From contig OZ316892.1 of NCBI GenBank assembly GCA_973895155.1, forward strand, positions 11,658,238 through 11,722,237: a stretch of DNA of 64,000 nucleotides. The letters run 5' to 3'. This DNA is from Marsupella aquatica (lineage: Eukaryota; Plantae; Marchantiophyta). A program made the translations under genes and the position numbers. Shown in pieces: positions 16,301 through 64,000 of this stretch. A model generated the notes under the pieces. The model had not been told where the DNA came from, made no database searches, and saw nothing but the letters and a program-made list of their open reading frames with translations. Every line of letters starts with the position of its first letter. Position 1 is the first letter of the stretch.

Positions 16301-17060
16301 TGGCATATAAATTAATTGAAATACTCACATCCCCATGCTTGAGGTGGACAGCCATACCCACGAGACTGTGAGTTTTGACCTGATCTACCTCTGCTGTGGC
16401 CAAAACCTGAACTCTGTCCCCTCCCGTAGTATTGGGCACCAATCTGGGATCTACCTCTATTACCACCTTGCCAACCACGGCCAGGGTTCATCCCACCTTG
16501 GTATGGTGGATGCACAGGTTGAGTAGGCAAAGCAGAAGGTACGGGACGTGGAGGGATAGGTTGAGTAGGCAAAGCAGAAGGCACGGGACGTGGAGGGACA
16601 GGTTGAGTAGGCAAAGTAGAAGGCACCGAACGTGGAGGCATAGGTTGAGTAAGCAAAGCAGAACTCACGAGACCCTGCATGACATACATCACCAAATATA
16701 ATTTGAGAAAACATTATGGTCATAGCTAGTGAACGCATGAGACCTAAGTTGTACTCAGCACTTGAACCCAATACCATCATTAGAAAACTACATACTTGCT
16801 TCTTCTTTGGTGGCTCCGCAATGTATTCATCTTCATATCCACCATCCTTATCCATTTCCTCTGGAAAATACTCATCGTCTGGATTGTTTTGTCTCCCCTC
16901 GTCACCCACTTGTGTAGGATCTATCTCATCTGCACATTCTGCCATTGTAGGTATTACCTTGTTGCTCAACCTTTCACTTCGACGCACAGGTCCAGTGGTA
17001 CTGCTAGTCACCCTCCTTTGACACTCCTTTTGTTGCTTTGAAAGGTCTGTGCATCTGCAA
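13369..17060 (-). pseudogene. CACTA-1 TnpA-like (ORF2), multi-exon, with premature stop
   Basis: Ptta/En/Spm Transposase_24-like segment WKRLVDYF...KKSAQMTDARLSVQNPNLTGRTG, and C-terminal FHGRKVPPGYSVVLID...LPFP...DAVGSTILWP (TNP1-type). In-frame TAG at 13624. The 5' boundary is approximate. Confidence 0.75.
16515..16660. repeat. 42-bp coding tandem repeat (~3.5 copies) inside TnpA-like gene
   Basis: aggttgagtaggcaaagcagaagg.ac.g.acgtggagg repeated; encodes PPRPVPSALPTQP. Confidence 0.9.
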
Positions 17061-17412
17061 CACACCAATACAAGAATCAAATCACAATTTTAGTGCCACA
17101 ATCAAATGTTCAGGTCACACCCAACTTAACATCAAGTTTTGGCAGAAAATTGTTCCCTTACAATTCAGCCACATCCATTTTCAAGGAGGCTTCCAGTCCG
17201 GCTATTCTGGCATTCACGTATGCTCGACGTTCCATGGCTTGCCTTTCATACTCACACATATGTGTGTCACTCTGTTCCATCCTATTGGATCACAAGCACA
17301 TGTCATCTATGGTCACCTTGAAACACAATCCAATTACTTGACCATGCATCTGCTCCTTGACAATTAATTTATTACAAAATCTATTTGTGTCCATGCAAAC
17401 AATGCAGGTTAC

Positions 17413-20400
17413 TCAAGGCACAGGTTCACTATCAGCATCTGGATCATTAAGTTGATCCCCTTCAGCAAATGCCTCTACCCTTGTCACAGGAATGAACTCC
17501 CTGCTATCATTCAGAACAGACACTTGGTGTGCACGTCGACGATCAAAGGCACTATGAGAATGTAAATGGAACTCAAGTTTAGATCCTTCCATCCGACGTT
17601 GCCTAGCCTATTTGTGACAGACTACACGCCAACCTGGGGAGTCTTCCACATCCAGGAAGAAAGCTTGCTCCACCTGACTGGGAAAGACAAATGGCTCAGA
17701 CCATTCAGGCAATTTCCCTCTAAAATTGGCAAGCAAGAATCCATCACTGTCTCTCTTCATGGTAGCCCTATTACTGTCCCAATCCTGTCGAACCCATGAA
17801 CCTTTCATAACAATGACAGGGCTGGACATGGCCCCATAATCTAGAGCCCATATGTCAATTAGTTCACCCACATATCCCATCTCCATCCAGGCCCTATCAT
17901 GGTCATGGCTCTGCTGTTGAAATACAGTAATGAGCCCGCAGTCATTTGTCACCCTGTACGCACTCTCATCATCCTTCACTCGAAAGTGATTCCCATATGC
18001 TCTCATCCGTTTGTAACTCTTCACTCTCAGACTAAGGGCATTGGATAGGAGGTAAAGGTCTGCATCCATGTCTGGATGGGTTGTATGATGCTCCCTAATC
18101 GCTAGCCGGATCCACTCTGCCAAACTTGGAAAGGCTGGACCAACAGTGGGATGGGCAGCCTTCAATGACTCGTACTCCCTGAAGAAACAATCTCACAACA
18201 TTAGCTTGGCAATCCATTGAAATGTTGGGAGTTAATCACATGCAGACAATGATATGTTATGAAGGAGGTTGTTAGTAGGACATGATGGTACTCACTGTAT
18301 CCAAGGTTCCATGAGCACAGTGTTGTGCAATACAAAGACATGTGCCAAGTCTCTCATAGCTATTGTCAAATTCTTTGTTGTTGCAGCCCCTTCCAATACT
18401 TCCCCTATGACCCCTTCCTCCTCATCAGAATTCCAGACCCTGGTATTCACATGCTCATACTGTGCTATGTATTCGGTCAGAAATCCTAGGGTTTCATCCT
18501 TGATGTAACCTTTAGCCATGCTTGCTTCTGGCTTGTAATATGTTCTAACGTGACCTTTCAGTAACTTCATGTACCGCTCCAAAGGGTACAGCCAACGAGC
18601 ACTAACAGGCCCAAACTGGTGTAGCTCTTCCACAACATGGACAAGTAGGTGAGTCATAACATCAAAAAAAGCTGGGGGGAAATAAATCTCCAAGTCACAC
18701 AACACCTGAGCAACATCCTCTGTGAGCTGTGGGAACTGGGCTTCATCCCAAACCTTCACACAAATACGGCGAAACACATCACTCAATCGCATGATGACAT
18801 TACGAACAGGCTTCTGCAAGAGACCCCTCAAGCATAAAGGCAACACCTGTTGCATCAACAGGTGATAATCATGGCTTTTCATACTGCCAAGCTTCCTACT
18901 CATAATGTGCTTCTTGAAAGCACTCCCATAGTTTGAAGGAACTTTCAAAGAACCCAACCTTTAGACAAATAGGTTCCACTCATCATCTGTCAGAACATAA
19001 GGCGCTTGGTACTTTAACAATACATCAGCTTTGGTAGCATGTGGCCTCAACCACAGATGGGGTTTGATACCCCTCCGTTCAAGATCCAATCTTACAGCAC
19101 CAGTGTCTTTCTCTCCACACAAAAATCGCAGAAGACTCTCACAAACATTCTTCTCAATGTGCATCACATCAATGTTATGTTTGCTTGGCTCAAACTTCTG
19201 CACAATTGCAATATATATAAAGTGAGTATGCAAATGCATTTAGTTGAGTCTAGTCAAAATTCATGCACATCATATGAAGCATTCCAAAGCAGCAATCATT
19301 TTCAAGGAGCAGAGAGCCTCAGAGGCTTACCCTCCAATACTCCAGTTCCAAGTCCAATATGCTCTGTCTTTTCACACCATATCATTTTCCTGGATCACCC
19401 ACTGCATCTGGCCTGCCTCCTCGTTTGATGTAGTCATCCTTGAGTGCTCCCCACTACTTGATCTCTTCTTTGGTCACCCGCTCTGGGGGTCCGCGATCCT
19501 CAATGGTGTGGTCAAAGTGTGCAATGAGTGCCCGCATTCGTCTGTAAGGGTGATTTGGCCTCAAAAAACGACGATGGCCCATGTATATCACTTTCCCCAA
19601 AACTCTAGAGTGCTCACTGGTGACATTGGGCCCACAAATAGTACATCCCCGATACCCTTTTGTTACTTGTCTTGATATCATACCATGGGCTGGGTAGTCA
19701 GCTATAGTCAAAATGATGATTGCTCTAAGTATGAACGGGTTCAGCCTCCCAAGCCTCTGCAGCACATCATATGTGAGAACTCCTTCATCCCATAGCTTCT
19801 TCAATTCTTCCACAAGGGGAGCCAGGTACATGTCTATGTTGGCAGACACAGTAGAGTCTGGCCTTGGTAGCAGCAGAACTAGGAGGAACAAAAAATCTCT
19901 TTGTAGTCATCCAAGGAGGAAGGTTGTAATTCAAAATAGTTACAGGCCAGCATGAGAACTTATTGTTCTTGTCTCCAAATGGGTTTACCCCATCCAATGA
20001 CAACCCAAGCCTCACATTCCTTGGCTTTGCTGCAAATTCTGGAAACATCTCATCTATGAGTTTCCACTGTCTTGAATTGGCAGCATGTCGTTGCAGCCCA
20101 TCCGAGCTTTTTTTTGAAGCTACCCAAGTCATCATCTTTGAGATAGCAGGGCTTCTAAACATCCGTTGAAGCCTAGGAATGAGTGGAAAATGACGAAGTA
20201 CCTTTGCTGGAACTAAAGACTTCCCTGCGTTTCGATACCTGTGCTTCCCACACACAGTGCATCTCAAGAGATCCTTATACTGATTTCTGAAGAGAATATG
20301 CCCATCAAGACAAGCATGGATGGAATCATAGTTCAATCCAAGATTAGATATGCATCTTTTAGCCTCATACATGCTTTTTGGCAAAAGATTATCAGGCGGT

Positions 20401-21153
20401 AGCACAGTCAGTCGTAGGAAGGCCAACAACTCAGAAACAAAAATGTTGGGGACATTGTGGTTGCCGCAAATGTTCAGGAACATGATGACAAATGCTAGTT
20501 TGGAACACTTGCTACTGGGATAAAGGGGGTGCCTGCATTCCTGAATTTGCACAGGAGAGCCAAACATCCAATCATGCCCAGGGGTTTCTTGCCCTATCTC
20601 AAACTCATCTAGAGGATTGTCAACTAGGCACACTTGCATCAGCATCAGTGTTGTCTTCATTGTCCAACCCATCATGAAATGCATCCAAGTTCTGAAAGAT
20701 GTCTCGCACCATCTGTTCCACATGAATGTCTTCGTCACGTGGCTCTGCCCGACGAATGTCCTGTTGGTGGTCAGTGATCCCACATAGACCAGCAACAGCA
20801 TTGTCCAAATCACCTGGCAGATCCACCTCCGACCGTCGCACAACATTGGCAGCCTGAAAATCTGCCCTCCACTCCTCATCAGAAGTATCTTCCTCCGCTG
20901 GATCATTCCAAACTCGATGTCGTGGATCTCGCCCATTCACCACAATATGCCGCCAAACCTCACTGAGGACCCTGCTACGAGTCCCTTGGCAGATTGCACA
21001 AGGACATCTCATCCTACTGGCTCCTGCAAGTCTATTTCTTAATGTTTCACGCTGCCAAAGCTTATTGTCATGGCGTGCAACTCTTATGGGATGATGTAAA
21101 GGCAATGGCTGTGCATTGCGTTGGGTCTGGGGAGGGTGGTGACGAGGGTGCAT
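17413..21153 (-). pseudogene. CACTA-1 TnpD transposase (Transposase_21/DUF4218/DUF4216-type architecture), disrupted
   Basis: CPC..C, IHAC..GHILF, LRHFPLIPRLQRMF, NVRLGLSLDGVNPFG, YNLPPW, ADYPA, DVMHIEKN, KSHDYH, FFDVMTHLLVH, WLYPLERY, EPFVFPSQVEQAF. Frameshifts at about 20625 and 19890; in-frame stops at 19454, 19382, 18961 and 17608. Confidence 0.93.
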
Positions 21154-21616
21154 TGTAATAGACTGCAAACTCTGCAATGATGAACAGTGGGTGAAAAGGG
21201 TAACAAAGTAGCCTACTAATGGTCAAAAGAAGAAGAAGTTGTTGTCATGTGAATTGGTCATGTACCTGAGTTGAAGTTGTCAACAATACAAATAGCAAAG
21301 GATGTTTGCCCAGCTCTGTAAACACCCCGTTCAGTACAAACTGTCTCCGTAGGGGCCTTGCAACACTGTATGTAGACATGAGGACAAAGCCACATCCCTG
21401 GTTAAGGAAAAGCCAACACGACACACAACACAGAACAGAATTTGAACAGAATTTGAATAGCATCCAAAGCAAAGAGATGATTTGATTGTGGAATGACATG
21501 ATGAGAGGACAATGAATGTTTTTATTACAGATGGAATTTGAAGGAAACAAGTTCACCACTCAACAAGTATTCATTGTCTAAATGACTGACACTGTCATGG
21601 CTCTTCATCAGATAAA

Positions 21617-22531
21617 CTAATCACTGTATTCGCCAGTGTCAAAAGAGTATTCGTCCTCATCACTCATGGTTTCCCACTCTGTGGTTGTGTCCCTGAGTAC
21701 ATCATTAACTAATGGTTCATCACCTCCATCCCAACTCTTACGTCTTTTGTACTTAGGCTTCTGAGGCCACACCTCATTCAGATCAAAGGTTGCTTCATCA
21801 AGTACAATGCCTCTATCTAGTGACTCTTTCATCCAAGCAGGTGAAACCACTTGCAGGCCCCTACTAACCATCATCCGAACTAAAGTCTTTCCAACCATAT
21901 GACAAAGTCTGGAATAGGATAGGGTGACCACATGAGTGGTAGAATCTATGAGGCATTCATGCACCTCACCCTGCCTGTGCAGAATTTTGTGCTTGAAACG
22001 TCTCAACCTTCCCGGTGGAATCCCAACACCCACAAACATGACCTTAACCCCCCTAAACATGACCCGCACATGGGGGTTTATGACAGGCATAGGATGCTCT
22101 AAGAGCTCTTGCCTAGTTCCCTGTGAAGCATCATCATATTGTGCTTTGAACTGCAAAATGTCTTTGGTGGCCCGTTTGTTCAACCATATATCATACTCTG
22201 TTGGGTCCTGAAGGGTGCTATATTCTAGACAGTCATACATCCAAGAGACATCAACAACCTTAAGACCATAGGACTCTCTGTAAAAGTTGATGGTGCTCCA
22301 AAACCACTTCTGCATCACATCACACCAATCATCAGCGATGACGTGTGTGGTGTCTCTACTGATTTGTTTCAACACTATCCCTCCATTCTCAACCAATTGT
22401 CTTTTCATGAACTCCCATCTATTCGTGTCCTCCCCCCTAGTATGAGTGACAAAAATTGCTCTAACTCCAGCAAACAGTGTAGGAGGAAGGTCTGAGGCAA
22501 GCCTCTTCAGTGTCCTACTGGAGGTAGCCAT
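21617..22531 (-). CDS. transposon-borne tandem BRCT-domain protein (304 aa)
   Basis: Two BRCT repeats: LFAGV...KRQLVENGG.V...TTHVI...VVDVSWMYDCL and MFRGV...KHKILHRQG.V...TTHVV...VVSPAWMKESL. Basic KPKYKRRK stretch and acidic tail. Intact intronless ORF inside the TIRs. Confidence 0.85.
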   Translation of the reverse strand: MATSSRTLKRLASDLPPTLFAGVRAIFVTHTRGEDTNRWEFMKRQLVENGGIVLKQISRDTTHVIADDWCDVMQKWFWSTINFYRESYGLKVVDVSWMYDCLEYSTLQDPTEYDIWLNKRATKDILQFKAQYDDASQGTRQELLEHPMPVINPHVRVMFRGVKVMFVGVGIPPGRLRRFKHKILHRQGEVHECLIDSTTHVVTLSYSRLCHMVGKTLVRMMVSRGLQVVSPAWMKESLDRGIVLDEATFDLNEVWPQKPKYKRRKSWDGGDEPLVNDVLRDTTTEWETMSDEDEYSFDTGEYSD

Positions 22532-22845
22532 GTGCAGTGCAGCCTTTTGACAGTGTGAAGGAAAAAGTGGACACCCCTGATATCACCTGCAGATCCATGA
22601 GAATGCCTAAATATGCAATTCATACAAGGATTGCAACAGCAACAGAACAAACTTGGGTATTGCCACATTCACATTCACCATGACATCCATAAACATGCAT
22701 GATATTCGTGTACACAGTGGGAATAACCATAATACAATAGGCAAGTTTGGAGTCCTGACTAGTTTAAAATGTGCAGGTATCCTGCCTAAGACAAAACTTG
22801 GCTAACCCCTAAAATGAACGCATGGTAAATATAAACTCCACCACA

Positions 22846-23520
22846 TCAAAGCCAGGAGATATGATCATGGGCAGGTGTGCCAAGTACAGGGTCAATGGGA
22901 TGCCTCGGGCAGTAAATCATCCACCGCTGCTGTCCATGCACAGTGTGCAGCCAAGGTTCTCTGTCTGGTGCAAAACCATGACGTTGACTCTCTCTTAAGC
23001 AACCCTCATGCCAGGTGGTGGGACATCTCAAGCATTGAATTGCCTTTGCCATATGAGGGTCTTTGTGATCTTGCTTGCATGCTGTACATGCATGCATGGG
23101 GCAAGACTCCACATCAAGCGGCAAGCACTCATGACAATAAAAATGAACACAATATGGCTGAGGGCACTGTCTGACCGCTGGAGAGACCACGCCACACTTG
23201 AAACACTTGTGTATCTTATTCTTGCAATCTACACAAAACCAGGGTTCACCATCCTTGCCTGGTGCAATAACCACTGCAGGACACTTGCCTACAGTGTCAC
23301 CAATTCTACAGACATAGTGAAAATGACGATGGCAAGACCCATCACACATGGCCAGATCTCCATGAAAATCACATATCACACACAGCTGGGGACTACACTG
23401 ACGCTTCTCAATGTCTGACCAGCGTTCAATCTTCAAGCTATGTGGCTCAATTGCCTCATTATGTTTCCGCTTTTTTGTTTCAGTGGCATTTTTTACGGCT
23501 TTCCTCTTCTCCCTAGCCAT
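22846..23520 (-). CDS. transposon-borne composite PHD-finger protein, EDM2/NSD-type (224 aa from ATG at 23520)
   Basis: N-terminal basic NLS-like stretch, then CVICDFHGDLAMCDGSCHRHFH...WFCVDCKNKIHKCFKC...C...C.HFY...CPMHACTAC...QCLRCPTTWHEGCL...MIYCPRHPIDPVLGTPAHDHI. Intact ORF inside the TIRs. Confidence 0.85.
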   Translation of the reverse strand: MAREKRKAVKNATETKKRKHNEAIEPHSLKIERWSDIEKRQCSPQLCVICDFHGDLAMCDGSCHRHFHYVCRIGDTVGKCPAVVIAPGKDGEPWFCVDCKNKIHKCFKCGVVSPAVRQCPQPYCVHFYCHECLPLDVESCPMHACTACKQDHKDPHMAKAIQCLRCPTTWHEGCLRESQRHGFAPDREPWLHTVHGQQRWMIYCPRHPIDPVLGTPAHDHISWL

Positions 23521-23939
23521 TACCAAGACTGAACATTAAACAGACAAATGTACAAAGTTATTACTATTGCATATAGTGAACGACCCCCTTCAAATGACAA
23601 AACAAACTACACATGGGCAGTTCCCCTGAAGAAGCATCATTTGATAACATTGTCACCCAGACCACAACCAGTTTATTAACTCAATGTCTTGAGCCTCAAT
23701 GTCTTGAGCCTCAATGTCCAATCCTCAGCCTGAATTCTGCCGTGTTTGTTCTGAAAACTTCTGTGATCAAATGCTTTTTCAAGATTGTCAATAGCAAAGA
23801 TATCTGCATCACACAAGAAAATTAGTTAGACAGTGTGAATGCAAATTTCAAAACACTTAACAAAATTCAAACCACCATTTCAATTCAAACCAATTGGCCA
23901 TGCATGTTACTACAACAATAAACAAATAATTAGGCTCAA

Positions 23940-24120
23940 CAGACAGGAGTTCAGAACTTGCCATTTGAGATTGACAATCTGAACTTCAGATTCAGACAGA
24001 ACTTGCCATTTGAGATTGACAATCTGAGCTTCAGATTCAGACAGGACTTCATCCAATTCAGGAGTTCAGACAGGAGTTCATCCAGTTCAGGAGTTCAGAC
24101 AGGAGTTCAGACAATCTGAA
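23940..24120. repeat. short tandem duplications inside CACTA-1
   Basis: cagaacttgccatttgagattgacaatctga.cttcagattcaga x2; caggagttcagacagga repeats. Confidence 0.8.
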
Positions 24121-27100
24121 GAGGACTTTGGACTTCAATGAGGGACAGCCTGGCCAAATAGTTATCCTTGTGGCCTTCAGCTGCATGTCTCAGGCTGAAT
24201 TTCACTTTCCAGATTTGAGAGAGGCCTAGTTTTAGTAACTTTTGTCTGACTCAACTTGGGAGCATTCAACCTATTTGCTAGCTTGTAGTTAGCTTTGACT
24301 CTCTGACTGTCAGCTTCATTGACGACCCTCTTGAGATATAAACAATTAGAACAAACACAAGTTGTCAACACAGATTCCATCGGAGCCATTATTACCTATT
24401 ATGTCAAGGCAATGGCTTCTTCTATTCCTTGTTGTAGCCAATTCAAATGTGTCATTCATTAGCAGACCTCTTTGGGAACCATAATAGTATGCAAAAAAAA
24501 AGTTAGCAACATTGCTGGCCTATCTTCACTCAGGATTCCAGGTTCAGGATACTCACTCAGTTGAGCGCAGTTGGACAGAAGTCACCTACCTCCACAAAAC
24601 CTTGTCTTTGAACCTCCAAGCAGGAGCTCACTTCAATACATGAGCTGAGCTAGATGTAAATTGCGCAGCTTCACGTTGCACCTCAGAGCAGGAGCTCGCT
24701 TCAGTACAGCAAGTCCTAGACGGAACCTCCTGTATCGGCCCCACAACAACAATGTTAATAAGGCTCCAAGTTGGACCTCACTTGGGCTAGCTCATGCAGA
24801 CATCATAGCTAGAAGCCAGGAATTACTCAGACACTGAATACTTCAGAATGGCCCATGGTGGTTGTCATACAATGCAACATTGAAAGTTAGAGGAAATATC
24901 CCATTCCGTATATTCAATTCACATTGGTTAGGGATCATACTGACCTCTTTTGGATGTATCAAACCTTTAGCATACCGAGTCAGCTTAGCGCAGTTGGACA
25001 AAAGTCACTCAGCCCCTTGTCCATAGCACGTTCTGAACCTCCCGCCTCACCAAATCCAGCAAAGAGCAGTGGATGCACAGCCTAGATAGCCAAACAAATT
25101 ATGGATCCAATCCTGACACAGTTAGAGTCTATGCGGATGCAACTGCAGCATGGACAAAGGGTCTCTTCCTTCCACTTAATATAGTCAATTCTTGCAAATT
25201 TTGTGAAAGCCCACTTCTGCCGTGACATGTTGTGAGAGTGAGAGGGGTTACGCTACAATCATATGTGGCACTAGTATAAGCCCCGACTTTATTCTGAAGA
25301 CTTTAGTGAATAGACACATGATTGGAGCAAGAATGTGGGCGCAACACATGATTACCTCATGCATGCATTGACTCAGCTTTGCATGATCGTAGCTCCCTCC
25401 TAGGTTGCAGGACCAGCTCTCGATCCAGTTGTAAAGCAGCAGCTTGTCTTGGCTCCTGGTTGCAAGTCGCAACCCAAGCTCTTGCTAGCAGCGCCCCGTC
25501 GCTGTTCAACGACAGTTCAGCTCAGGTAAGCACGCTTGATCTCTATCGTTGAGATCAGTTCAGCTTAAATAACTTGCAGGAGTCAATAAGCAGGAGTCAG
25601 GGCCACTATCATTTTTAGACATCGCAACTCAAACAGCTCATCAGTGACCGCAACTCAAAGGCCGATGCTTCAGTGACCGATGCCTCAGTGACTTTTGTAA
25701 TTCATAAAAGCTTCTCTTCAATGACCACTTCTACTACGGGAGATATGAACACCGAAAACCCAGCTGAAATGGAAAAAAGGGGGGAACGGCACCAGATAGT
25801 CCTCGACCTCTGTGAGAGCGCTCGCGATGGCCACTTCCTAGGTGGAATCTGTCTGCTTTGAAGTGAGAGGAGCACCGCAAATCGTAGCTGAAACCGCGGC
25901 CATCTTCAACAACAACAAATAGCAGCTGCAACGAAATGAGAACTCAGCAAATGTCGCAAATGCTGCCCTGCTCTGCTCTGCTCCGAATGTTGTTCTTGGC
26001 GACACACCAAAGCCTCGTCGCTTTGCTGATTCTCTTCCTACTGGTGCAGCCTAAACCTCAGCCCAAGCAAGCACATTCGATGGGCAGTTTCTGTCGGAAT
26101 GAGTGCCTCCCGCAGTGCAAACTCTTCACAGTGCCTTCCGTAGTGCCTATCGTCGATGCGTCACATAATTGCTCTTGTCCCCTTCCAATACATTCTGTTT
26201 CGTCGATGCAGCACCCTAAACTCGCTCTTCTCGCGTCCTACTACTCACTTTGCAGTCGGGATTGCAATTTGTCGATGCAGCTTTTGCCTTAGTGACAAAG
26301 TGCCCCCTCTTTTCCCTTGCAAAGAATGCAGCATTGGCTCCTCGTCCGCGAAACCAAAGGAATCCAAGGCAGAATGGCAATGCCGTGAAGGAACACATTA
26401 AACCCTAAAGCTGCTTTAATGTGCGCATATTTGTTTTCAACCGTCAGATCATCCTTTCATTAAGTTTACAACCGTCAGATCCTTGCTTGATTAAGGTAAG
26501 CACTGTCACACGAGCTGTCACAAGTTCTTATGCTCATTCCATCAGCATAGTGTGTGGGGTGCCGTTATTGGGTATGTAACATGCATGGAGGGGAGTATAT
26601 GAAGGTAAATTGTGACTATTCCCGGTTCATGGAACGATGTGTGGAGGGGGGTACATGTTGGTCAATTTGTAGGGCATGGCAATAAGTAAAAATAACCTGC
26701 CCTTGCACATGTAACCACGGTAATACACATTAACGTCCCTTGCATATGTAACCACGGCCAATAGTGAAGCCTTTTTGCGGTTGAATGGGGGCATGATGGC
26801 ATGGTGTCTAAATTAATGGGTGCTTATGAGCAATTTTCTTGGCCTGGAATAATCATGGAAAACTCACTAATGGTTAAAATGCATGACTTAACCATGTTTA
26901 AATAGAGTAATCTAATTATATAGGTATATCTACACTAACAATGTATTGGGTAGGATCCCATAGCTCAGGGTTTAGGTTGGTAGGTTCAAATATTGTGCTA
27001 TAAACCATAATGCTATATTGTAGAGTCACTTGTTGAACTTCAACGTAATTGCCTCAATTGAGTTGTACTTGCAACTTTCCAAATAGTTGAAAACATGACT

Positions 27101-30100
27101 CCCCTAAACTTCACCAAAAATCAGTCAACAAGGTGTGACGAACATGACACCCTAAACCTTGGAGTCACTTATTTCTGAAGGTCTCGCACAAGTCATGTAA
27201 GGGAAGGTCTCAGAATAGCTCGGTTTCTTCTAGTGGAATTATCTCTAGCTCCTATAATGCTAGGAAGTGCTAGGTAAGTCTAACCATGGTTAAGTTCCTA
27301 ACTATGGTTAGACTAACTATGGTTTAACCCAAGAGTAAGCGTTAACCAAAAAAACAGGGGGCGGGTGACAAACAGGGAAATGGAGTGGTTGGCTTGAGGA
27401 GGGCTTAAATGTCCTCACATCTATTTTAGTTTAGAGGGCAGGCACTCAGGCCATCAAGCCATATCAACAGTTCACCTCTCCCTCTTTTCCTCAGAGCAAG
27501 GCTCCATGGGTTGGGGCAGGGAGCACAAAAGTGCCCCAGGAATCTTGGAGCCAAATAGTTTACAAGATTCATTTTAGCCATACATACTTTACAAATTTTA
27601 CCCAAAATAGAAACTTTTCAAATTTTGATTTAGCACGAATTAAATTCACATTCATAACATTTGTAAAGTATGATACTAGTGTACCCTGGGCCCTCAACTT
27701 ATATAAATTGGAGAGGTAGTGCAACATTGAGAGAGTAGTTTAGGTTGATTTTAAATTAATTCTTATAATGATTACCAGCAATGGTGAAGACAATGGAGAA
27801 TGTCTGTTCACAAATAGGTTCCATTTACACGCAATGAAGCCCGAGAGTATCCCCAATTGGATAAGTACATATTTTATCCAAAACCCAAAGTGAGTACTTA
27901 ATTACGAGATCTACTCCACACAAACTACAATTGGAGAGCAAGTATGTGGTTGGAAAGCAAGTGGGCGGTTCATGGCCCCACACCTAGTATATTAATCTTA
28001 CAATTGGAGAAGATTCATTAGAGAAACGTGCAACCGAAAGTTTGGATAGGATTCCAAAATGCTCTTTATATGTGCTGGTATTGGAGGAGACTTTTCTGTT
28101 TGTTTCCCCCGGCCATGGGGTTTGCGTGGCCCATAAAAGTTATAAAAATTCTAAAAACGTTTAAAGGAAAATGCTCTTTATATGAAAGTCCAGCTTTTTG
28201 GCTCAAGATTTATCATCTTAGTTGAAGTGGGATGTTTCTCCAGATCCCATGCAAACTTGGAATCCTACATAAGAAAAAGGTTTAGAAAGGGGATCCCGTC
28301 CAACCGTTTATACCTGGACAACTTGGGCACTGTGTAAAGACTCGTATCCCCTTACTCAATATTCACTTCATCTTACTGAAAGTATATATTTCAATCCTAT
28401 CTGATATAAAGGCATAGAACGAGGATCCCAACAAGCTCCCAGAGAAACTTTTGTAGTGTGTAAAGATTAGTATCATTTCACTCAAGATTCATATCATCTT
28501 AGTTAAACTATATGTGTCCATAGATCCTGTTGGTTGAAATCCTATGTGATGAAATGGTTTAGGAAGAGCATCCCATCCCATCCAAGATAATACCTCCAGA
28601 AACTTGTGCAGTGTGTATAGAAGTAAATCTAATGACGTTGAAGCTTGGATGAACATAAATGAAAAATGAGATGTATTCACTTTAGTTCCACAGATTACAT
28701 GTAAACATGCATTTGACTGGTAATCAAATGTTGCAGCTGTCCATATAGCCATCTCTGTAATCTTATTCATTCAACTGAAGGAGTTGGTTTCCCTTGTTTA
28801 TTATAGTTACCGTGTATATAACCTCTTACATTTCCATATCGCATCAATGTAAGGTTCCAGGAGTACTGTGACATTGTAAGGTTCATACAAGTAGTGACGT
28901 CAACTTTAGTGTCAGAGATTTGTCATTTCAAATTTAATTGTGGGTGAATCTCCCAATTAATTCATGACACTGTAAAGTTCTGGGAGTATTGTGACACCAT
29001 AAAGTTCTTGTGTACTCCGAGAGGGAGTGTCAAACATTTGTGTCCAGAGAGTTTCCACTTTAAATCTAATGGTGGACAAAACTCTCTATTATGTCATTAC
29101 ATTTAAAGGTTCCACAAGTATGGTGACACTGTAAAGTTAGTGTGTCCATCCAAGTAACAATGTCACAAGTTGACATAAATTCAGTCAGGAAAACCAGTGT
29201 CAAAGTAACAAAGTAATCAAAAGCCTAGTAACCCAGCACCAAACCTGAGTTATCCTATACATCCATGAGAGTTAACACTCCAAATTAAATGGTGGGCGAT
29301 AGTGCCTATTAAATTTCATCGTAAATGCCAACGCAACGCACAGAAAGAACAGTACAGGCGTCTAAAAGTATCCTCGTGAGCAAAGGCGTGATCTATTATG
29401 ATGTGGCCGATCTGTCCACACGGCTCCAATTCCTCCAATCTGCTCTGCATCCGCAACGAACGATTCGTCCGTCGCTCTGCTCTCGCAGCTCTCATCGCTT
29501 GCCATCTGTTTCCATCGCTACAGTTGTGATGCGCCGAGACTCCAGATTGGGTGTCGATGTAACGCCCATGGGAACCTCTAGACTCTAGACCGAGCTTTGT
29601 TTCTGAATTGATGGAGAGAAGGTCGCAGGGCGAAGCTGGAGCTAATCGGGAAGAGTTTGCTCTCAGAGTTCCAGGCTTTCAGCGCTCGATTGTGCCTCGA
29701 GCTCCTCTGGCCTCTGCGCTCACGGATTCTTTTCGCATGATGATGGTCGAGCGGTGGAGCAAGAAAGAAGACGCGCGGGTGTGCTTCGAAAGTGCAGGTG
29801 CCGTGGCGTCCAATTTTCACACGCACTTCGTTGCGTGTTCTACGTCGGCTGCGGTTCGCATGGAAGGGAGAAAGAAAGGAAGACACGAATCGCGTCGAGT
29901 TTGTGGTGGAGGTGGAAGGTAAGAGCGGCCGCAGAGAGTGTGAGGGATTATCCTGGCAGGAGAAGTCTGTGGCTGCGTTCGAATTCCGGAGAACTTGGTT
30001 CGTGCTGTGGTACTTGTCTAGTTGATTCTCGTTTGTACAGCGGTACCGATCTAATTCGTCTCGAAGCAGAAGCGGATGCTCTCTGAGGAGCATGTTCGTT

Positions 30101-40242: not shown

Positions 40243-40842
<600 letters not shown>

Positions 40843-54200: not shown

Positions 54201-54455
54201 AAGGTCAGGAGGCCCATATGTTTGAACAACTACCATGGCATCCTGATAGGCCTGCATCATATGTCGTGCACTACCCCCATATGTGGACGGTAAAATGGAG
54301 GTCCTACCCACATTGCTTGCTTGTGCATCCCCATCTTGAACTGCATCTTGCAGCCCTTGATATAACTCGGTCCGAAGCTTTTTCTGATTGTTCCGAATAT
54401 ATGTGAGGCGTGTCTGGTCTATACACGCATATGCATCCACAATAAATTGCTTCAA
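51246..54455 (-). pseudogene. Helitron RepHel (HUH endonuclease + Pif1-type SF1 helicase), 5'-interrupted, one in-frame stop
   Basis: FTTFTCNPEW, EFQKRGLSHAH (HUH), KYLYKYCYKG (Y2), DGPGGTGKTF, WDEAPM, GDFRQVLPV, TINKAQGQTL, HGQLYVAFSR. The two ORFs are in the same frame, separated by a TGA at 52965 (GAQI*QLF). Confidence 0.95.
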
Positions 54456-54757
54456 CCACTAGTAGAAACCGGGGGGTATTTAGACCCCATTAAACGACTA
54501 TTCAGTACCGTATAGGACTTGGAAACGACTGGGAAGGACTCCAGTCCTTTATAGGACTATGAGTCGTATGTTTTGTTACTAAAATCAACTGAGTCCTTTA
54601 TAGAACTGGTTTATAAGTCGTTTTATAGACTGGATTTTCAGTCTATTGTAGTCTTTGTGTGGGTAGGTTTGGTGAGTCTTTTTCAGTCTTTTATGGGCTG
54701 CGATGGTGAGTCGTTGGGAACAACTCAAAAGGTTATGAAGGGTAGTCTTTAAATATA

Positions 54758-54870: not shown

Positions 54871-55392
54871 TATGTACAAGTCTTTCATGTCAACTGGAAA
54901 TGAGTGATGAAGACCCCACTATACTACTTGGAATGAACTCACTCTTGTGCACAAATAACACATTTCATTCATGTTTTATTGTGTACTTGGAATGAACTCA
55001 CTCTATAAGGTCACCATTCACCATGTTAACATTAAAACCTCACACAAATTTTCAGAAAGCCATCTTCTATACCATGTACACTAATATGAATTCACAGATT
55101 CAAACATCATAGACTACAAAGAAGGTCACAAAGCATTCGTCTATACCATACACACTAATACTGAATTGATACAAAACAGATTCAAGTATCATAGACAATC
55201 ACCATAGAGCCATAGTTTGACATCAATCACTTGTTTCATACATATAGAATTCAGAAATATCAATGTCACACACAACGGCTCCTTCATCCTCTTTACCAAA
55301 TGGAAAAATTGGTACAGATATTTCTTGGATTTTTCCAAGGCAATGTCAAAATGTAACACAATTCACATGATTCTATCTACACTTGTATTCAG

Positions 55393-58300
55393 TCACTGCA
55401 GACTAACACACTCTGATGGCCAGAGCACAAGAGATCCTACTGCATCTGCAATTATTTCTTGAGGTGGATCATCGTCTCTATTCGGAAATGGCAAATTACA
55501 ATCAGATACAATCACTGTAGTCAACAACACTACTACATGGTCATCCGGGACCACTTTGCCATGGAATTTAGCATGATCCGGTCGCAAAATGCCTGTACCC
55601 ACACATACCTGCGAGTCATTCTCCCATGATAGAAGATTATGGACTGGCTCTGCTGTGGCTATCACCTCCACCTTACCCTGGCTGTTTTTCTTGGCTTTCC
55701 TGGGTGGCTTATACATGACATTATTCATACCTTGGTTGCGAGTCATGACTTTGGCACGAGTGTTTTGTGCTGGTGATCGAGAATTGGCTACACTCTTCTT
55801 CAAAGAATCTGCATCCATATTTGACACTTTCGATTGTGTAGCAGGATTTCCCTGCGACATCATCTCAGTATCTGCTAACATTGTACTTGCTTCAATTGAA
55901 GCATCTACAATCTTACTTGCATCCAATGTTGCTCCCAAGTTTCGACGTCGCTTCACCCTGCCCACTTGGTTGAGAGTCTGTCAACTCTGCATCAACTACA
56001 ATTCAATGCATTGTCCAACATAAGTGAATCACTCATCACATGTGCGCCATGTACATGTCACCATCCACAAAGTTGTCACTATCTCCTTACCATTATGAAC
56101 AGCCTTCTTCCCCTTCTTTGCCATTGCCATATCCTCCATGTCTGCTTCTGCTGATCAATAAACAGACCACAAGATTCAGGTTCAATCTATTAACCATTGA
56201 ATTGTTTCTCAACAATGGTAGGAGAGGAATTTAAAGCATCAGCTTACCTGATACCTCCTTGGCTATGGTCACTGAGGCACTGGGCACATCTTTTTCATTG
56301 CTCTTTGAATCACCTGATACATCAATCATGATGTCACTTCAGTTCCCAGTTTATCCAACCAATTCTTACAGAAAAGATTACCTCCAACCGGCTTAAGCTT
56401 CACAAAACTCCATGCACTTTTCAAATGTAATGTACTGGATCATAGCAGGTTACCTGTCTCAGCAACCTTTTTGCCATTCTGCTTACTGATTACAGGGTCC
56501 AGGTTCTCTGCCTCCACTCTTCCTGCATTCAAACCATTCACTCAATTCATGAAAACTTACTTCTAACATTTGAACATAGGACACAATGAACAATGGGCCT
56601 CTCTTGTTTCAAAATCCTCATTGCATACCTGTGTCAGATTTGCCAATTCCCTTTTTCGTTAACAAGGGCACACTTTGTACAATGTTGCCCTCATTGTTTG
56701 GTTGGGAACCACCCAATTTTTCAATCATAAGCTTGAAATTAGATTCCACTGATGCAAGAAGGTTCGCTACAGATGCCTCCACAATATCCAAACGATCAGC
56801 CAATTTACTTTCCACTCGAGGGAGTCCACACTCTAATGACTTCAACCGTTCAGACATCTCTGTGAGAGTTGTAACAGTTCCTTGTCATAACACAGTTTAC
56901 GTATCTCAGATAATTGTCCCCAAGAACTGGTTGCTTACTTCCTACTACAATTTTTTCTGATGCTCAAGGCCAAATAGTCACAGAACATATAGAATTACAA
57001 CATAATCACCTGTTTGGAAGTCACACTTGTCACCTCACTCCTTTGTTTCATGAACTCCTCTCTCACTTCTTGTGCTGATGGTTCTTCACCTGTCAATTTC
57101 TTCTGCAGTCCACATCAACATACATATGAATGAAACCAAGTGTTGATTGTCAATGAAAATGTAATAATGGTAGCAAGATGATAAGTTTGAGGCTTACTAT
57201 CAGGCATGTCACTGCCTTACCAATTGTTCTTTCACTGGAGCATAACTTCCTCTCCCAGCCTGTGAAAGGTGTTTCACTTTGCCTCGAGCATTTGACATCA
57301 GTTCACTCTTGCTCTGTCCAGCCTCCGACATGAACCCTTTGATTAACCGTGTCCATTGATCTAGTTCCAATTGATGGGGGTGGTGGCATTCTCCTGTTAG
57401 AACCATTGTCTATCCACATCCTTTTCAACCTATGCCTCTCTTGTTTCAAAATCCTCATTGCATAATCTGATATGCAATCTTCAACTGGGCCCTTACCATC
57501 ATTACCAACATAGTCCCACCGTTCAAGAATGTCCTTGCAGATAGCAGCCCAATCAGCTTTGTTCTGACTCCTAAACTCTGTAATGCTCAAATCTAACCAA
57601 CGCAATACTTCTCCTCTTAGGTCAGAATGCCAACGGTTCTTACCATCACATGTGGGAGTTATCCAACCTTCAGAATTCACTTCTACTTTACCAAATTTGT
57701 TACTGTCTCCTGCCTTGGTACTCCCTGAAGCGCTACTAGGTGTCCCTCCACGGCCTGGGGTCCCTCCACGGCCTGATCTCCCCCCACGGCCTGGATTGCA
57801 TTGTCCAAACCTCCCTGGAGTCCCTGCACATTTACAGGATCCATTTATAGTCACTTACATTAGGTAAGTATGAATCATAAATCCTGCTGCCAAATATACA
57901 CTGGACTTCAGAGCAATTCTGCAATGACCAAGTTACCTCTCCCTTGGCGCATAGATGGTTCTGGACCACCTGTCCTATTGCTTTGTCTTGATGAATTAGG
58001 GCCGTTTCTCCCGCCTGTGAATGATTGCCGCCTATCTGAACGTGGATGGCCTTTGTTGTTTTCGTGATTGTCCCAATCAGAGTCTGCATACCAACAGGTA
58101 CATGCCACACTCATGGACCTGTAAGATAAACTCTTTGCCCTAGCTACACATCAGATAAATCCATATTGAGCTAAATCTCTACTACCATCACAAAATCACT
58201 AGCACAAGGCACTTACTTGTCCAATCATCCTCCTCACCTGTCCATTGCCCTCTGTACCCGTCTCTACCACGCTCTGGGTGTTCATATTCATCCCATCCAT

Positions 58301-58736: not shown

Positions 58737-61700
58737 CTATTGCAAATCATCAACCTCATCATATTCCATTTGCCCAGGTTCATCATATGTCTCTCTCAAT
58801 GTTAAGGGGATGTAGTCAGTCCCTGCCCGAGTTGGAAGTACAGTCTCATGACTAGGATGCTCGAATGCAGCATGGTCATCCAAACTGAACTCTACTTTAC
58901 TTCCATCCATCCGCCTGTTCCGTGCTTGGCTATGGCATACCACCCTCCAGCCATGTGACTCCTCCACATCTGCAAAGAAAGCCTGTTCAACTTGGCTAGG
59001 GAAAACAAAAGGCTCAGACCATTCTGGTACTCTGGACCTAAAATTGGACCTAAAAGAACCCATCATGATCACGCTTCATGGTGGCCCTTGGTCTCTGCCA
59101 CTCTGATTTCACCCATGATCCCTTCATCAATATCACTGGGACACTTGTGTTACCATAATTCAACACCCAAATGTCGGTCAACTCCCCCACGTAACCCATC
59201 TTCATCCACCCCCTCTGTTCTTCAGAGGTTCTCTGCTCAAACACAGAAATCAAACCACAATCATATGATACACAATGGTCACCCTGCTCATCCCTCACTC
59301 GATAATGATTTCCATAAGCTCTCATCCGTTTGTAGGTCAGAATAGACAATCGTGGTGGCACAAATAGAAGATACAAATCCTTCTCCATATCTGGGTGATG
59401 TCTACTATGCTCTCGAATTGTCACCCGAATCCACTGCTCGAACTGTGGGAAGGGATCCTGCTGCCCAGAGTGTGCAGCTTTTTGCATATCATATTCCCTG
59501 CAATATGAGGTACAGGCATAGTTAGGTCTAAACAACACATGACAACCTAAGATCACCCTTGGAACAGACAAGAAGCATCACAACAAAGGCAAGTCAATTC
59601 AATCACTCACCTCCACCATGGTTGCATAGGCTCTGTGTTTGCCAGCACATATGAATGAGCCTTGTCTCGAATCGCAACAGGCAGCTGAACAGCACGTCCC
59701 ACACCTTCAACAACCTCGCCACTCACTCCATCATCTTCACCAGATTTCCAAACTCTTGTCATAGCTTCACCAGACCCAGCCATGTACTCTGTTAGGAATC
59801 CCAACGTCTCATCCTTAATGTACCCCAATGCCATGGAAGCCTCTGGCCTGTAGTATGTTCTCACATGACCTTTCAACAACTTCATGTATCGCTCCATAGG
59901 GTACATCCATCTGGTACTGACTGGCCCATACTGCCCTAGCTCTTCTACCACATGGATTAGGAGATGAGTCATAACATCAAAGAAAGCAGGGGGGAAGTAT
60001 ATCTCCAAGTCACAGAGGACATAAGCAGCATCCTGCTTCAACTGCTCCAATCCTTGGGGATCCCACACTTTCACACATATACGGCGAAATACATTGCACA
60101 GTCGAAGAATGACATTACGGACTGGTTTCTGCATGAGACCTCTGAGGCATAGGGGCAGAATGTGCTGCATCAACACATGGTAGTCATGTGTTTTCATACT
60201 GCCAAGTTTATTCTTTGTAATATGCTTCTTGAAGGCACCAGCATAGCCAGAGGGCACTTTCAGACAACTCAATCTATACAAGAATGTCTTCCATTCATCC
60301 TGTGTGCACACATAGGGAGCTTGGAACTTGAGAAGTACATTGGGATTGCTTGCATGGGGCTTCAACCAAAGGTGAGGGCGAATCCCCTTCTGTTGCATAT
60401 CAGCTCGAACTGCTCCTGTATCTTTCTCACCCGACAAGAACTTCAGCAAGCTCTCACAAATATTTTTCTCAATGTGCATGACGTCCACATTGTGTTTGCT
60501 GGGCTCGAATTCCTGCACTCCACAAAGCAAAGAATTCAACAACAGAAACACTAATTAACCACATAGGAGGATTGTAACCAACATCAATCCACCATTGCTC
60601 CAATCTAAAATTGCAATCATACAGGGGCTGGAGGCGAAGTACATTACCCTCCAGTACTCCAACTCCAAGTCCATCAAGGTCTATCTTTTCACACCGTGTT
60701 TCACCACTGGATCCTCAGGTTCTCGATCAGTGGCACTTCTCTTGTCCCAATCAGCCTTCCTGGCTGCCCACCTCAGGACTTGCTCTCTGGTGACCCTCTG
60801 TGGTGGGCCACGAAGCTCTGTTTTGTTGTTGAAGTGTGCAATTTGAGACCGTGTGTGCCTGTAAGATGATCAACAGGCAGATACCTTCTATGCCCCTGAA
60901 ATTTCATACTGTGCAGGGCATACGACCACTCACTTGTCACATTTTTCCCACATGGTGTGCACCCCACATAGCCCTTTGTCACTCGTCCAGATATGATGCC
61001 ATGGCCTAGGTAATCTGCTATATCCAGCAAACAAATTGCATGCAGTCTAAAGGGGCTGGGTCGAAGAAGCCCCTTCAGAACATCATGGGTTAACACCCCT
61101 TCTATCCACAAAGTCTTCCACTCTTCCACTGCTGGAGCCAACATGATATCTATGAATTGCTCGGTCACAGAAGCTGGTCCAGGGATTAACAGCACCATCA
61201 TGACAAAAAACCTCTTTGTAGTCATCCATGGGGGAAGGTTGTAATTTAGCAGCGTAACCGGCCAACATGAATAACGGTTGTTTTTGTCTCCAAATGGGTT
61301 TACTCCATCCAGTGATAGACCAAATCTAAAGTTCCGCTTCTCTGCAGCAAACTGTGGCCACCTCTCATCAACAAATTTCCAATGGTTGGAATCTCCAATG
61401 TGACGCTGCAGGCCATCACTGCTCTTGTTATCAGGAGTCCATGTCATCAGCTTGGAAATGGCAGGGCATCTAAACAGACGTTGTAGTCTAGGAATGAGAG
61501 GAAAATGACGAAGAACCTTGGTAGGGTGTGTACATTTCCCTACATTCTTGTACCTGTGCTTACCACAATGAGGGCATGTCAATTTATCTGCATGCTCTTT
61601 GCGAAAGAGAACACACCCATCAGGGCATGCGTCAATAGACACATAGTTCAGCCCAAGGTTAGACATCAATTTCCTAGCCTCGTACATATTTTTTGGAATT

Positions 61701-62437
61701 GAATTACCATCTGGTAACACATTTCGGCGCAGGAAGGTCAACAACTCTGTCACAAATATATTGGGAACATTGTGATTGCCACAGATGTTCAACAACAACA
61801 CGACAAAACCCAGCTTGGAGCAGTTCGACCCCTCGTAGATAGGAATGCAAGCTTCTTTGATGTGTTTTGGGCCCCCAAACACCCACTCCCTCTCTGCTGC
61901 ACCTTCCCCAATGTCAAAGTCAGGTTCAGCTTGGCCGTCGCCAATGTGTGGCTGCGGTTCATTGTCCTCTTCTGATTCCACTGTGTCGTAAAAAGCATCA
62001 AGGTCTTCAAAAATCTCTTGAACCATTCTTGGGACATCCATCCCACCGTCCTCAGTGACTGCCTCTCCATCTCCATCTTGGTCATCCACGTTCTCATGTT
62101 GGACCCCAGGACCATCCTCTGCACAGTCTATGTCCTGCTCTACGTAGTCTCTACGCCTAGCTGTATTAGAATCCACAAAGTCAGCTCTCCACTCTTCATC
62201 AGAGGAGTCTTCTTCTGCTGGTACATTCCAAACCCTCCATCGAGGGTGCCTTTCATGCCGCAGCAGGTGAAGGTGCACAGTGTTCAAACTCAACGACTTG
62301 AATCCTTGGCACTGTGTGCATGGGCATCTCATCCTCCTACTCCTACCTTGGGCGGCCCGGGCTTGTTCACGCATCCACAATTTAGAATCATGATGCCTAA
62401 TCCTAAATGGGTTGTGAAGAGGCAACCTTGGAGCCAT
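58737..62437 (-). pseudogene. CACTA-2 TnpD transposase, disrupted
   Basis: IDACPDGCVLF, LRHFPLIPRLQRLF, LSLDGVNPFG, DVMHIEKN, KTHDYH, FFDVMTHLLIH, WMYPMERY, EPFVFPSQVEQAF. Frameshifts at about 60865 and 59052; stop at 60681. Confidence 0.93.
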
Positions 62438-62763: not shown

Positions 62764-63333
62764 CTACCACATCAAATACGGATACCAATCCTGTTGTCGA
62801 TGCCACTCAGCCCTGAGGTACTCAGGCATGTACATTAAGTCATCAAGGTCTAAACCCTGCTCATGCCATGGTGGTCCTCGATCCGTGCCTACAAGCAGTG
62901 GCAGTAGTGCCCTCCATGGTGCACATGTTGCTACCAAGTCCCTCCACTGGGTACTAATTAGTCTATATTTGCAGATATCTTGTGCGCCAGACACCACAAG
63001 AACCCTCGGCCAGACATGTGTAAGAACTATATCATTTGCCAAATCAGGCAACAAGGAACCACCTACAGCATCGTGCTTGTCTAACTCATCTGCTGAAAAG
63101 TAAATGTCCTCTTCCGACTGTGCATCCTCATTCACCACAGCATTCACAACACATCCAAGGTCTGCAGGCATTATCTCGGATGGAGCTACACTCTGTCTGG
63201 TTACCAATCCACACAAGTAAGCCCAAGCAGTAGCCATGCACGATGCAACCCGTAGGAGGACCCTACATAGGGCCTGACGGTCTGGAAGAGGCAGCATACC
63301 CACCAAAGTCTTCAGCCAAACAGAGCCCAGCAA
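62764..63333 (-). CDS. transposon-borne F-box-like protein (first ATG at 63297)
   Basis: LLPDLANDIVLTHVWPRV...CKYRLISTQWRDLV resembles the F-box consensus (L.P.LP.D......R....R.V...W...V). Intronless ORF inside CACTA-2. Confidence 0.55.
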   Translation of the reverse strand: MLGSVWLKTLVGMLPLPDRQALCRVLLRVASCMATAWAYLCGLVTRQSVAPSEIMPADLGCVVNAVVNEDAQSEEDIYFSADELDKHDAVGGSLLPDLANDIVLTHVWPRVLVVSGAQDICKYRLISTQWRDLVATCAPWRALLPLLVGTDRGPPWHEQGLDLDDLMYMPEYLRAEWHRQQDWYPYLMW

Positions 63334-63473
63334 GTAGATTCACAGTCACACCCCACGCAGCAGGAAACAACAATCACTTCAACTGCGACCAACCATGACA
63401 AGATGAGTTAGTTCAAGGATCACATTTATTACAAAATTGTGATTTATACAAAAATATGAGGGACTCCTACTCC

Positions 63474-64000
63474 TCACTCTCTCCCACCTTTGCTAAGCAT
63501 ACATCTCCGCTGAATCTTGGAGGGCCAGGCCTCAAAAATATCAAAGTCCCAAGCATTCTATCGCTTCCCTCTAGCTGCTGATTCCAGAAGCCAATCAGGG
63601 GAAAGCACCCAAAGATTGTTGTTCATGACAAAATCACGCACTATTGTCTTAAAGAATTTTCTGCATATTTTCATGTATGACAGACCTACAACATGAGTGG
63701 AGGTTTCTGTTAGACTCTCCTCCACTGTCCCACCTAGCTCAACAACTATAGACTTGTACAATCTGCACTTAGTCTCCCCAATTCCTTCTTCTGCAAATAC
63801 CACACTGAACCCCTTCATAATGGTATTTCTCTCCTTGCCATGCTCATTCAATATAGCATCTGCACGCATAGGATGGTGTCCTATGTTGACAATAGGTCCA
63901 TATTGGACAGAAGCAAAGTTGGGTTTCTCTGTCGCTGCTTCATAGGCTTCCTTTTCAGCCAAAGCCTCTGCAGTGGCCTCCTCACTCTCCCACAACTCAT
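63474..64000 (-). pseudogene. transposon-borne BRCT-domain gene, homologue of the CACTA-1 BRCT gene; 5' part outside window, probable premature TAG at 63558
   Basis: MKGFSVVF...YKSIVVELGGTV...STHVVGLSY...VLSPDWLLES. Reading through the stop gives NAWDFDIFEAWPSK, matching CACTA-1 EATFDLNEVWPQK. Confidence 0.78.

Follow-up and report, generated by a model that had tools for sequence, protein, structure and literature searches.

A tandem-BRCT gene in two CACTA transposons of Marsupella aquatica: apparent past purifying selection and a possible link to host break repair

Why would a CACTA transposon carry a BRCT gene, and has the gene served the element or merely travelled with it? The question arises from an open reading frame at the end of the window analysed here (the whole 64,000-nucleotide stretch of Marsupella aquatica DNA), which is part of a BRCT gene inside one CACTA element (CACTA-2) and has a counterpart in a second element (CACTA-1). 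Cut-and-paste elements multiply only if the break that they leave is repaired suitably, and in this they are thought to be passively dependent on the host.

CACTA-1 is a complete element of 14.8 kb (12410..27235, minus strand), bounded by 18-bp perfect terminal inverted repeats (26/30 overall) and by the 3-bp target-site duplication GAA on either side. For CACTA-2, the left terminal repeat (54457..54471, plus strand) is 14/15 identical to both ends of CACTA-1 and has no other match within the window at two mismatches, while the right end lies outside the window. The terminal repeats start with CACTA, as in the superfamily, at both ends of CACTA-1 and at the left end of CACTA-2. On the minus strand, the order in CACTA-1 is a PHD-cluster ORF, the tandem-BRCT ORF, the TnpD transposase gene (17431..21153; two frameshifts and four stops in the aligned parts) and ORF2/TnpA-like exons (13177..17089; Transposase_24, E 3e-4 and 21.3 bits, below the cut-off of 28.7). 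That in CACTA-2 is the BRCT gene, an F-box-like ORF, the TnpD gene (58749..62434; Transpos_assoc, Transposase_21 and DUF4218; two frame changes and one stop) and ORF2/TnpA-like exons (55237..57854; 44% and 29% identical to pieces of CACTA-1 ORF2). Transposase_21 and DUF4218 exceeded the Pfam cut-off in both elements, and Transpos_assoc (both) and DUF4216 (CACTA-1 only) fell below it; the two TnpD counterparts are 53% identical, with aligned segments at 46-72%. Thus the BRCT gene lies on the same strand and 5′ of TnpD in both elements, a linkage to CACTA transposase for which two copies in a single genome are the evidence. In CACTA-1, the stretch 5′ of the PHD ORF (23676-26292) contains exon-like pieces (for example, 23676-23825, minus strand) and short direct repeats; two ORFs scanned there had no Pfam match, and the part may hold a further spliced gene.

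The CACTA-1 gene (21617..22531, minus strand) is intact and intronless, and encodes 304 aa with two BRCT repeats (two Pfam BRCT stretches), a linker helix and an acidic tail. The CACTA-2 gene is represented by its C-terminal part (63474..64000, minus strand), which comprises the end of repeat 1, the linker helix, repeat 2 and the tail. Its frame is open from the window edge (63998-63561), meets a TAG at 63558-63560 within the end of repeat 2, and continues to a TGA at 63474-63476; repeat 2 occupies aa 58-140 of the open frame (Pfam BRCT, E 6e-9). The two genes had been proposed to be homologous on the strength of short peptide pairs (THVVTLSY/THVVGLSY, VVSPAWMKES/VLSPDWLLES and FDLNEVWPQK/FDIFEAWPSK), all of which were found in place, and the frames are identical at 45 of 144 positions (31%; BLASTP E 2e-20). 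Conservation resides mainly at the protein level, as had also been noted: the cargo regions of the two elements have no significant nucleotide alignment (best blastn match 21 nt, E 0.094). An identity of only 31% with no nucleotide alignment might be generic BRCT likeness or chance, a reading whose probability is negligible. The 146-aa CACTA-2 piece scored 66.4 bits on CACTA-1 but 11.6-18.4 bits on four BRCT proteins from outside the family (phmmer), and among 177,635 PDB sequences it matched no BRCT at E<=10, with only two unrelated chains at 11.8 bits. By both searches, therefore, the likeness is well beyond that between arbitrary BRCT domains. Furthermore, when the CACTA-1 protein was shuffled 2,000 times, the score of the first part of the CACTA-2 linker (aa 1-25) was reached by none of the shuffles, that of the whole linker (aa 1-58) by 5, that of the BRCT core by none and that of the tail by 8. 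Generic or chance similarity is thus refuted.

The original prediction that similarity extends outside the BRCT core stands in part. Linker and tail each beat the shuffles, yet alignments placed the first ‘linker' residues at the C-terminal end of repeat 1, and the FDI/FDL of the ‘tail' at that of repeat 2, both being normal ends of BRCT repeats; less therefore lies outside the BRCT fold than had been thought. The long linker helix and an E-x-W-P-x-K motif are features of a wider family of two-BRCT proteins.

A relative in that family, P0002, is 57% identical to the CACTA-2 frame (95 of 168) and extends 108 residues further in the N-terminal direction, with BRCT repeat 1 within them. The first repeat of the CACTA-2 gene, which had been expected from the frame's being open to the window edge, is thus very likely present beyond 64000. 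The TAG column holds a sense residue in CACTA-1 and, in answer to a check proposed earlier for other copies, in relatives (Arg in P0002 and P0021, Ile in P0016). Since P0002 supplies repeat 1 and reads through the column with Arg, the TAG is best read as a lesion, and the CACTA-2 frame is evidently the C-terminal half of a gene with two BRCT repeats that has become a pseudogene. An acidic tail follows directly after the E-x-W-P-x-K motif in CACTA-1 and in five of nine relatives examined; CACTA-2 has none in frame, and its tail region, in every frame, gave no convincing match to the acidic tails of relatives.

A phmmer search against 1.84 billion protein representatives returned 19 matches at E<=0.001 (10 at 1e-10). 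Fourteen of them (P0001-P0012, P0014 and P0016) conform to the family pattern and are 27-39% identical to CACTA-1; in eight clusters there are full-length members, 264-321 aa long, that have both repeats and, in Pfam, BRCT-clan domains only. These evidently constitute an unnamed family of stand-alone two-BRCT proteins with at least 14 divergent clusters, drawn mostly from metagenome and Logan contigs and named ‘hypothetical protein' or ‘BRCT domain'. Five matches fall outside the count: P0013 was rejected as a repeat artefact, P0015 is a generic multi-BRCT protein, P0017 is Pol lambda (E 4e-31 to human Pol lambda) and P0019 is a Pol X protein. The fifth, P0018, has a single BRCT, a coiled-coil-like C-terminus and no clear PDB relative; at 44-58 bits on the profiles of both repeats, it could represent the ancestor of the family or a relative that has one repeat only. 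Word-index searches, an insensitive method of little weight, gave no match among 556 candidates for the CACTA-1 protein and one among 3,172 for the family alignment; the ESM Atlas yielded only generic BRCT clusters with scores under 0.9, and scans of viral contigs and prokaryote genomes found no locus, as expected for plant DNA.

The only outside locus found, L001 (1,404 bp; metagenome), carries a family member at 2-937 and is 98% identical to the intact P0022, with its own in-frame TAG where P0022 has Gln. Its CpG observed/expected ratio is 0.32, as in the CACTA elements, and it is evidently a second decayed copy of the family, transposon-like in this respect; its 467 bp downstream contain no transposase match. 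A likeness of the ORF downstream of L001 to the F-box-like ORF of CACTA-2 was considered and rejected, as 1,329 of 2,000 shuffles reached the score.

The original prediction of an ancient acquisition followed by purifying selection was then set against a codon alignment of the two BRCT genes. Under a maximum-likelihood codon model (144 codons), omega was 0.29, with a 95% upper bound <0.6 and dS of 2.3, and neutrality was rejected (likelihood-ratio statistic 15.1, P 1e-4). Because alignment at the protein level biases omega downwards, 60 neutral pairs were simulated and realigned likewise; among the 58 usable pairs the median omega was 0.86, and none reached omega<=0.29 or the observed likelihood-ratio statistic. 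CACTA-1 against L001 likewise gave 0.29 (272 codons), and the fit of CACTA-2 against L001 was saturated and unusable. A counting method returned 0.53 for the BRCT pair (CI 0.28-0.84), a value that is biased by saturation, so that the maximum-likelihood estimate is preferred. These tests support the conclusion that purifying selection acted on the tandem-BRCT gene, as far as codon comparison can tell. For two TnpD segments, dS was 1.65 and 2.5 and omega 0.14 and 0.07. Thus the BRCT cargo has accumulated silent changes to roughly the same extent as the transposase and was less constrained, although with dS near saturation this match is a loose one. The matching dS and the shared position fit one old capture in a common ancestor, before the two CACTA lineages split; past selection is supported, and the single acquisition is consistent with these data. 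Selection on the CACTA-2 gene is historical, given its premature stop, the absence of an in-frame acidic tail and the broken state of both transposases.

Could this selection instead have been earned in the host? The two-BRCT proteins might belong to the host, as a gene family of this lineage of plants, from which the elements took paralogues separately as passengers, much as Pack-CACTA elements do. CACTA elements often capture gene pieces, according to the available portions of PMC8978399 and PMC13317346; CACTA-2 is far closer to P0002, which comes from another source (57%), than to CACTA-1 (31%); and genomic context was seen for just one of the 14 outside clusters and is uninformative there. 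Yet the gene sits in the same place and on the same strand in both elements, and as whole intronless ORFs rather than fragments; its dS resembles that of the transposase; family members are no more than 27-39% identical to CACTA-1; L001 is decayed and CpG-poor like a transposon; and no named or UniRef-sourced family member occurs among the cluster members listed. A host origin of the selection is accordingly quite improbable. Pack-CACTA elements, as described in the accessible text of PMC13317346, resemble CACTA-1 and CACTA-2 in having host-derived sequence inside CACTA ends, whereas the latter carry a full-length, now broken, TnpD and so fall outside the non-autonomous definition; unlike the recent fragments in Pack-CACTA, the whole BRCT ORF was kept under selection across about two synonymous changes per site. 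We therefore regard the tandem-BRCT gene, with high confidence, as a long-kept accessory gene of the transposon.

What the protein might do was approached through its structure and its nearest relatives. An AlphaFold model of the CACTA-1 protein (pLDDT 79.6, pTM 0.52) contains two confident BRCT folds, with a helix of 25 residues and a flexible segment between them. Single domains of the model matched PARP4, XRCC1, ECT2 and Pol lambda (Z 12-15). Compared two domains at a time, the model came closest to Rad4 BRCT3,4 and TOPBP1 BRCT4/5 (Z 14, r.m.s.d. 3.7-4.3 over 180 residues), and r.m.s.d. to the MDC1, BRCA1, MCPH1 and 53BP1 pairs was 11-13; at a pTM of 0.52, the packing of the two domains is uncertain. 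The profile of repeat 2 scored 34-71 bits on repeat 1 of family members (19-23 in the divergent P0026), and that of repeat 1 scored 37-63 bits on repeat 2, with the best single PDB domains at 33 and 22 bits on the repeat profiles. As the repeats score each other above the best single PDB domains, the comparison points to internal duplication as their probable origin.

As donor of the BRCT, Pol lambda appears to hold a modest lead, with TOPBP1 as the rival. Among PDB sequences, Pol lambda ranked first both for repeat 2 (E 2e-7), where BRCA1 trailed it by about 4 bits per domain, and with the profile of the whole family, and two of the four non-family BRCT matches in the library are Pol lambda or Pol X (P0017 and P0019), although these were picked by the same query and their scores are thereby inflated. 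A fold match to the Pol lambda BRCT was also obtained (PMC12056208, in the part available; Z 12, r.m.s.d. 2.1 over 94 residues), and the Gly and the aromatic residue of the alpha-1 motif are mostly kept. In contrast to Pol lambda, the family has two repeats, repeat 1 has an invariant Trp cluster of its own, and an attached polymerase domain is absent, CACTA-1 and all eight full-length relatives having BRCT-clan Pfam matches only. Repeat 1 prefers TOPBP1, Rad4, PARP4 and REV1 over Pol lambda. In a 30-row BRCT tree, whose rows include no plant Pol lambda, the Pol lambda rows were unplaced and 13 of 27 branches were open. LIG4 was rejected as donor: it had the top Foldseek E-value (2e-11), but a TM score of 0.27 and r.m.s.d. 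over 20.

Two residues of human Pol lambda, R57 and L60, are reported in the available part of PMC12056208 as crucial to Ku binding; there, Arg at L60 impairs the enzyme, and catalytically dead Pol lambda is dominant negative via R57. In repeat 2 of the family, the R57 position holds Arg or Lys in 6 of 10 rows, the L60 position a hydrophobic residue in 4 of 11 and the F61 position Phe or Tyr in 10 of 11. The R57 and L60 equivalents are both kept in two of ten rows, CACTA-2 and P0002, which thus retain basic, hydrophobic and aromatic residues at the R57, L60 and F61 places (Lys, Leu and Tyr in CACTA-2); CACTA-1 has Arg at the L60 place.

The two-domain matches raise another possibility, namely that the protein is an accessory factor that mimics a checkpoint scaffold of the TOPBP1/Rad4 type and damps or redirects damage signalling, rather than acting on end joining. 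Repeat 1 best matches these very proteins, and the predicted packing resembles that of TOPBP1 BRCT4/5 and Rad4 BRCT3,4; two BRCTs joined by a long linker are likewise found in TOPBP1, Rad4 and DNA ligase IV. Moreover, TOPBP1 BRCT4/5 has its phosphopeptide pocket in the second repeat only, according to the accessible text of PMC10386641, and 7 of 11 repeat-2 rows carry a Lys at the pocket position of alpha-2. However, none of these Lys has Thr or Ser two residues before it, the start of alpha-2 in repeat 1 is Trp instead of Lys in 14 of 14 rows, and the Ser/Thr-Gly half of the pocket in the beta1-alpha1 loop (a motif as given in the same source) occurs once among 10 repeat-2 rows and in none of 13 repeat-1 rows. 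By these residues, the canonical phosphopeptide pocket is evidently absent or incomplete in the family. Identity to the TOPBP1, Rad4 and LIG4 tandem pairs is 14-20%. In addition, each repeat is more like the other than like any domain in the PDB, the low pTM leaves the modelled packing uncertain and no TOPBP1-sized protein is among the 19 library matches. A checkpoint mimic is thus an unlikely explanation.

The explanation that we prefer overall, if tentatively and at somewhat short of an even chance, is that the two-BRCT gene carried by both elements encodes a non-catalytic decoy or adaptor for host end joining, which would operate at the breaks made by transposition. Without a catalytic domain, the protein could act only by binding. 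The captured sequence would have been a single host BRCT, with DNA polymerase lambda as its likeliest source, taken up once by the common ancestor of CACTA-1 and CACTA-2 and duplicated in tandem. The gene would be expressed by splicing from the promoter of the element; in each ORF examined by eye, a pyrimidine-rich stretch followed by an AG lies a short way upstream of the ATG, which suits splicing from one promoter. Like Pol lambda, repeat 2 would bind Ku or XRCC4-LIG4; as it carries no polymerase, it would compete with that enzyme, and with such a competitor gaps at the empty donor site would be filled more slowly. Repair of the donor site would then shift from end joining to copying from the sister chromatid, by which the element would be restored and its copy number raised; alternatively, repair of the new insertion might be accelerated. 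In general, sister-chromatid repair of the empty donor site restores a cut-and-paste element and thus leads to a gain. An end-joining decoy is favoured because the BRCT of Arabidopsis Pol lambda binds LIG4 and XRCC4 and the enzyme is cited for a role where transposons have been excised (PMC4444747, in the portion available), and because the dominant-negative effect of dead human Pol lambda runs through its Ku contact. As to the parts of this explanation, the prospect that the protein acts on break repair at all is about evenly balanced, and a route through Ku and Pol lambda, as decoy or adaptor, is conceivable but carries more doubt than belief. A BRCT-only gene kept under selection in CACTA elements would point to an element-encoded handle on break repair. 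Annotation would mistake the two-BRCT family for host repair genes, and a small end-joining modulator active in plants would be useful in gene targeting.

The other cargo ORFs of the two elements bear on what else might be affected. In CACTA-1, an intact PHD-cluster ORF of 224 aa without catalytic domain lies 315 bp upstream of the BRCT ORF on the same strand (22846..23520, minus). It matched PHD-1st_NSD, PHD_NSD and PHDvar_NSD in Pfam, all below the cut-off, and NSD3 at E 7e-9, and in the Atlas it falls closest to a PHD_NSD cluster of streptophytes (score 0.93); a word-index protein search, which is insensitive and of little weight, gave no match among 64 longer proteins. The ORF is likely a captured histone reader and possibly an anti-silencing factor. 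NSD-type PHD fingers are also found in the plant protein EDM2 (PMC3776765), which affects the silencing of transposons (PMC3632883), as stated in the available text of these sources; on both grounds EDM2 is the likely donor. In CACTA-2, the place next to TnpD is taken by an uninterrupted 191-codon ORF with a weak F-box-like motif (62764..63339, minus strand; Pfam F-box E 0.081, 13.3 bits against a cut-off of 20.5); read from its first ATG it had no Pfam match at E<=0.01 and no PDB match, and tblastn found no counterpart in CACTA-1. Since the cargo sets already differ in this way, the earlier suggestion that a PHD gene possibly also lies beyond the window edge in CACTA-2 is weakened.

The CpG observed/expected ratio is 0.33 in both CACTA elements, as against 0.65-0.74 in the four other window regions measured, and CHG is not depleted in either; the CpG depletion indicates that both elements were silenced. 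The BRCT protein, the NSD/EDM2-type PHD reader and the F-box-like ORF might together act on chromatin or against silencing, much as VANC or Spm TnpA do, and thereby keep the element transcribed in heterochromatin. The intact PHD ORF beside the BRCT gene, the properties of EDM2 and the past silencing of both elements agree with this, as does the count of lesions in the CACTA-1 cargo ORFs (none, against 2.8 expected from its TnpD; P 0.06, not significant). Nothing, however, links the BRCT protein itself to chromatin, and it is without the phospho-pocket for canonical reading of gamma-H2A.X; the PHD ORF is seen in one element only, and EDM2 is a putative donor. We consider this reading improbable. 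VANC proteins are the anti-silencing proteins of VANDAL Mu-like elements. The gene described here is like VANC in being a transposon-encoded accessory protein selected to act on host machinery, but it belongs to another superfamily, the Pfam scans gave no domain of VANC type, and anti-silencing is conjecture in this case. A version that combines both ideas, in which a plant CACTA clade would carry a host-manipulation kit of a duplicated Pol lambda-derived BRCT decoy that occupies Ku and directs excision breaks to templated restoration, an EDM2-type histone reader and an F-box protein, is doubtful; if true, it would be a case of a cut-and-paste transposon that itself encodes a factor to modulate break repair in its host.

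CACTA elements with extra domains are already known. The Chenopodium CACTA/En-Spm elements with added domains (Peptidase_C48 and Transposase_24; PMC8978399) and the 16-20-kb En/Spm elements of Chondrus crispus with 4-5 ORFs (cited in PMC6431247) are the closest such systems. Shared with the elements reported here are the CACTA ends, the 3-bp duplication, the order of TnpD domains, a putative ORF2, the large size and the extra coding sequence, the comparison of ORFs with Chondrus being one of number. Unlike in both of these, the extras in CACTA-1 and CACTA-2 are separate ORFs 5′ of TnpD. The term BRCT did not occur in the searchable portions of PMC8978399, PMC6431247 and PMC13317346, and the literature search (Repbase and most subscription journals being outside its scope) found, among the records listed, no publication linking BRCT with CACTA/EnSpm or describing a transposon-encoded BRCT. 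Within the scope searched, a whole, selected tandem-BRCT accessory gene was thus not found in print.

Several other features were observed in the window. A Helitron Rep-helicase (Helitron_like_N and PIF1; 51246-54456, minus strand) is cut at its 5′ end by CACTA-2; it has one in-frame stop at 52965, and its observed/expected ratios of 0.68 for CpG and 0.72 for CHG are the opposite of the CACTA pattern. Just downstream of it, on the same strand, exons of an SPT2-like chromatin protein (46946-50180, minus; weak Pfam E 0.005) represent either a host gene or Helitron cargo. A YqaJ-like recombinase domain (6184-6576, minus strand; E 7e-9) lies near 354-bp tandem repeats (7241-8302) and possibly belongs to another mobile element. 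Likely host genes, all on the plus strand, encode an F-box protein (1408-1740), a pyruvate-dehydrogenase-kinase-type protein (30823-32997) and a cold-shock-domain protein with zinc knuckles (40243-40842).
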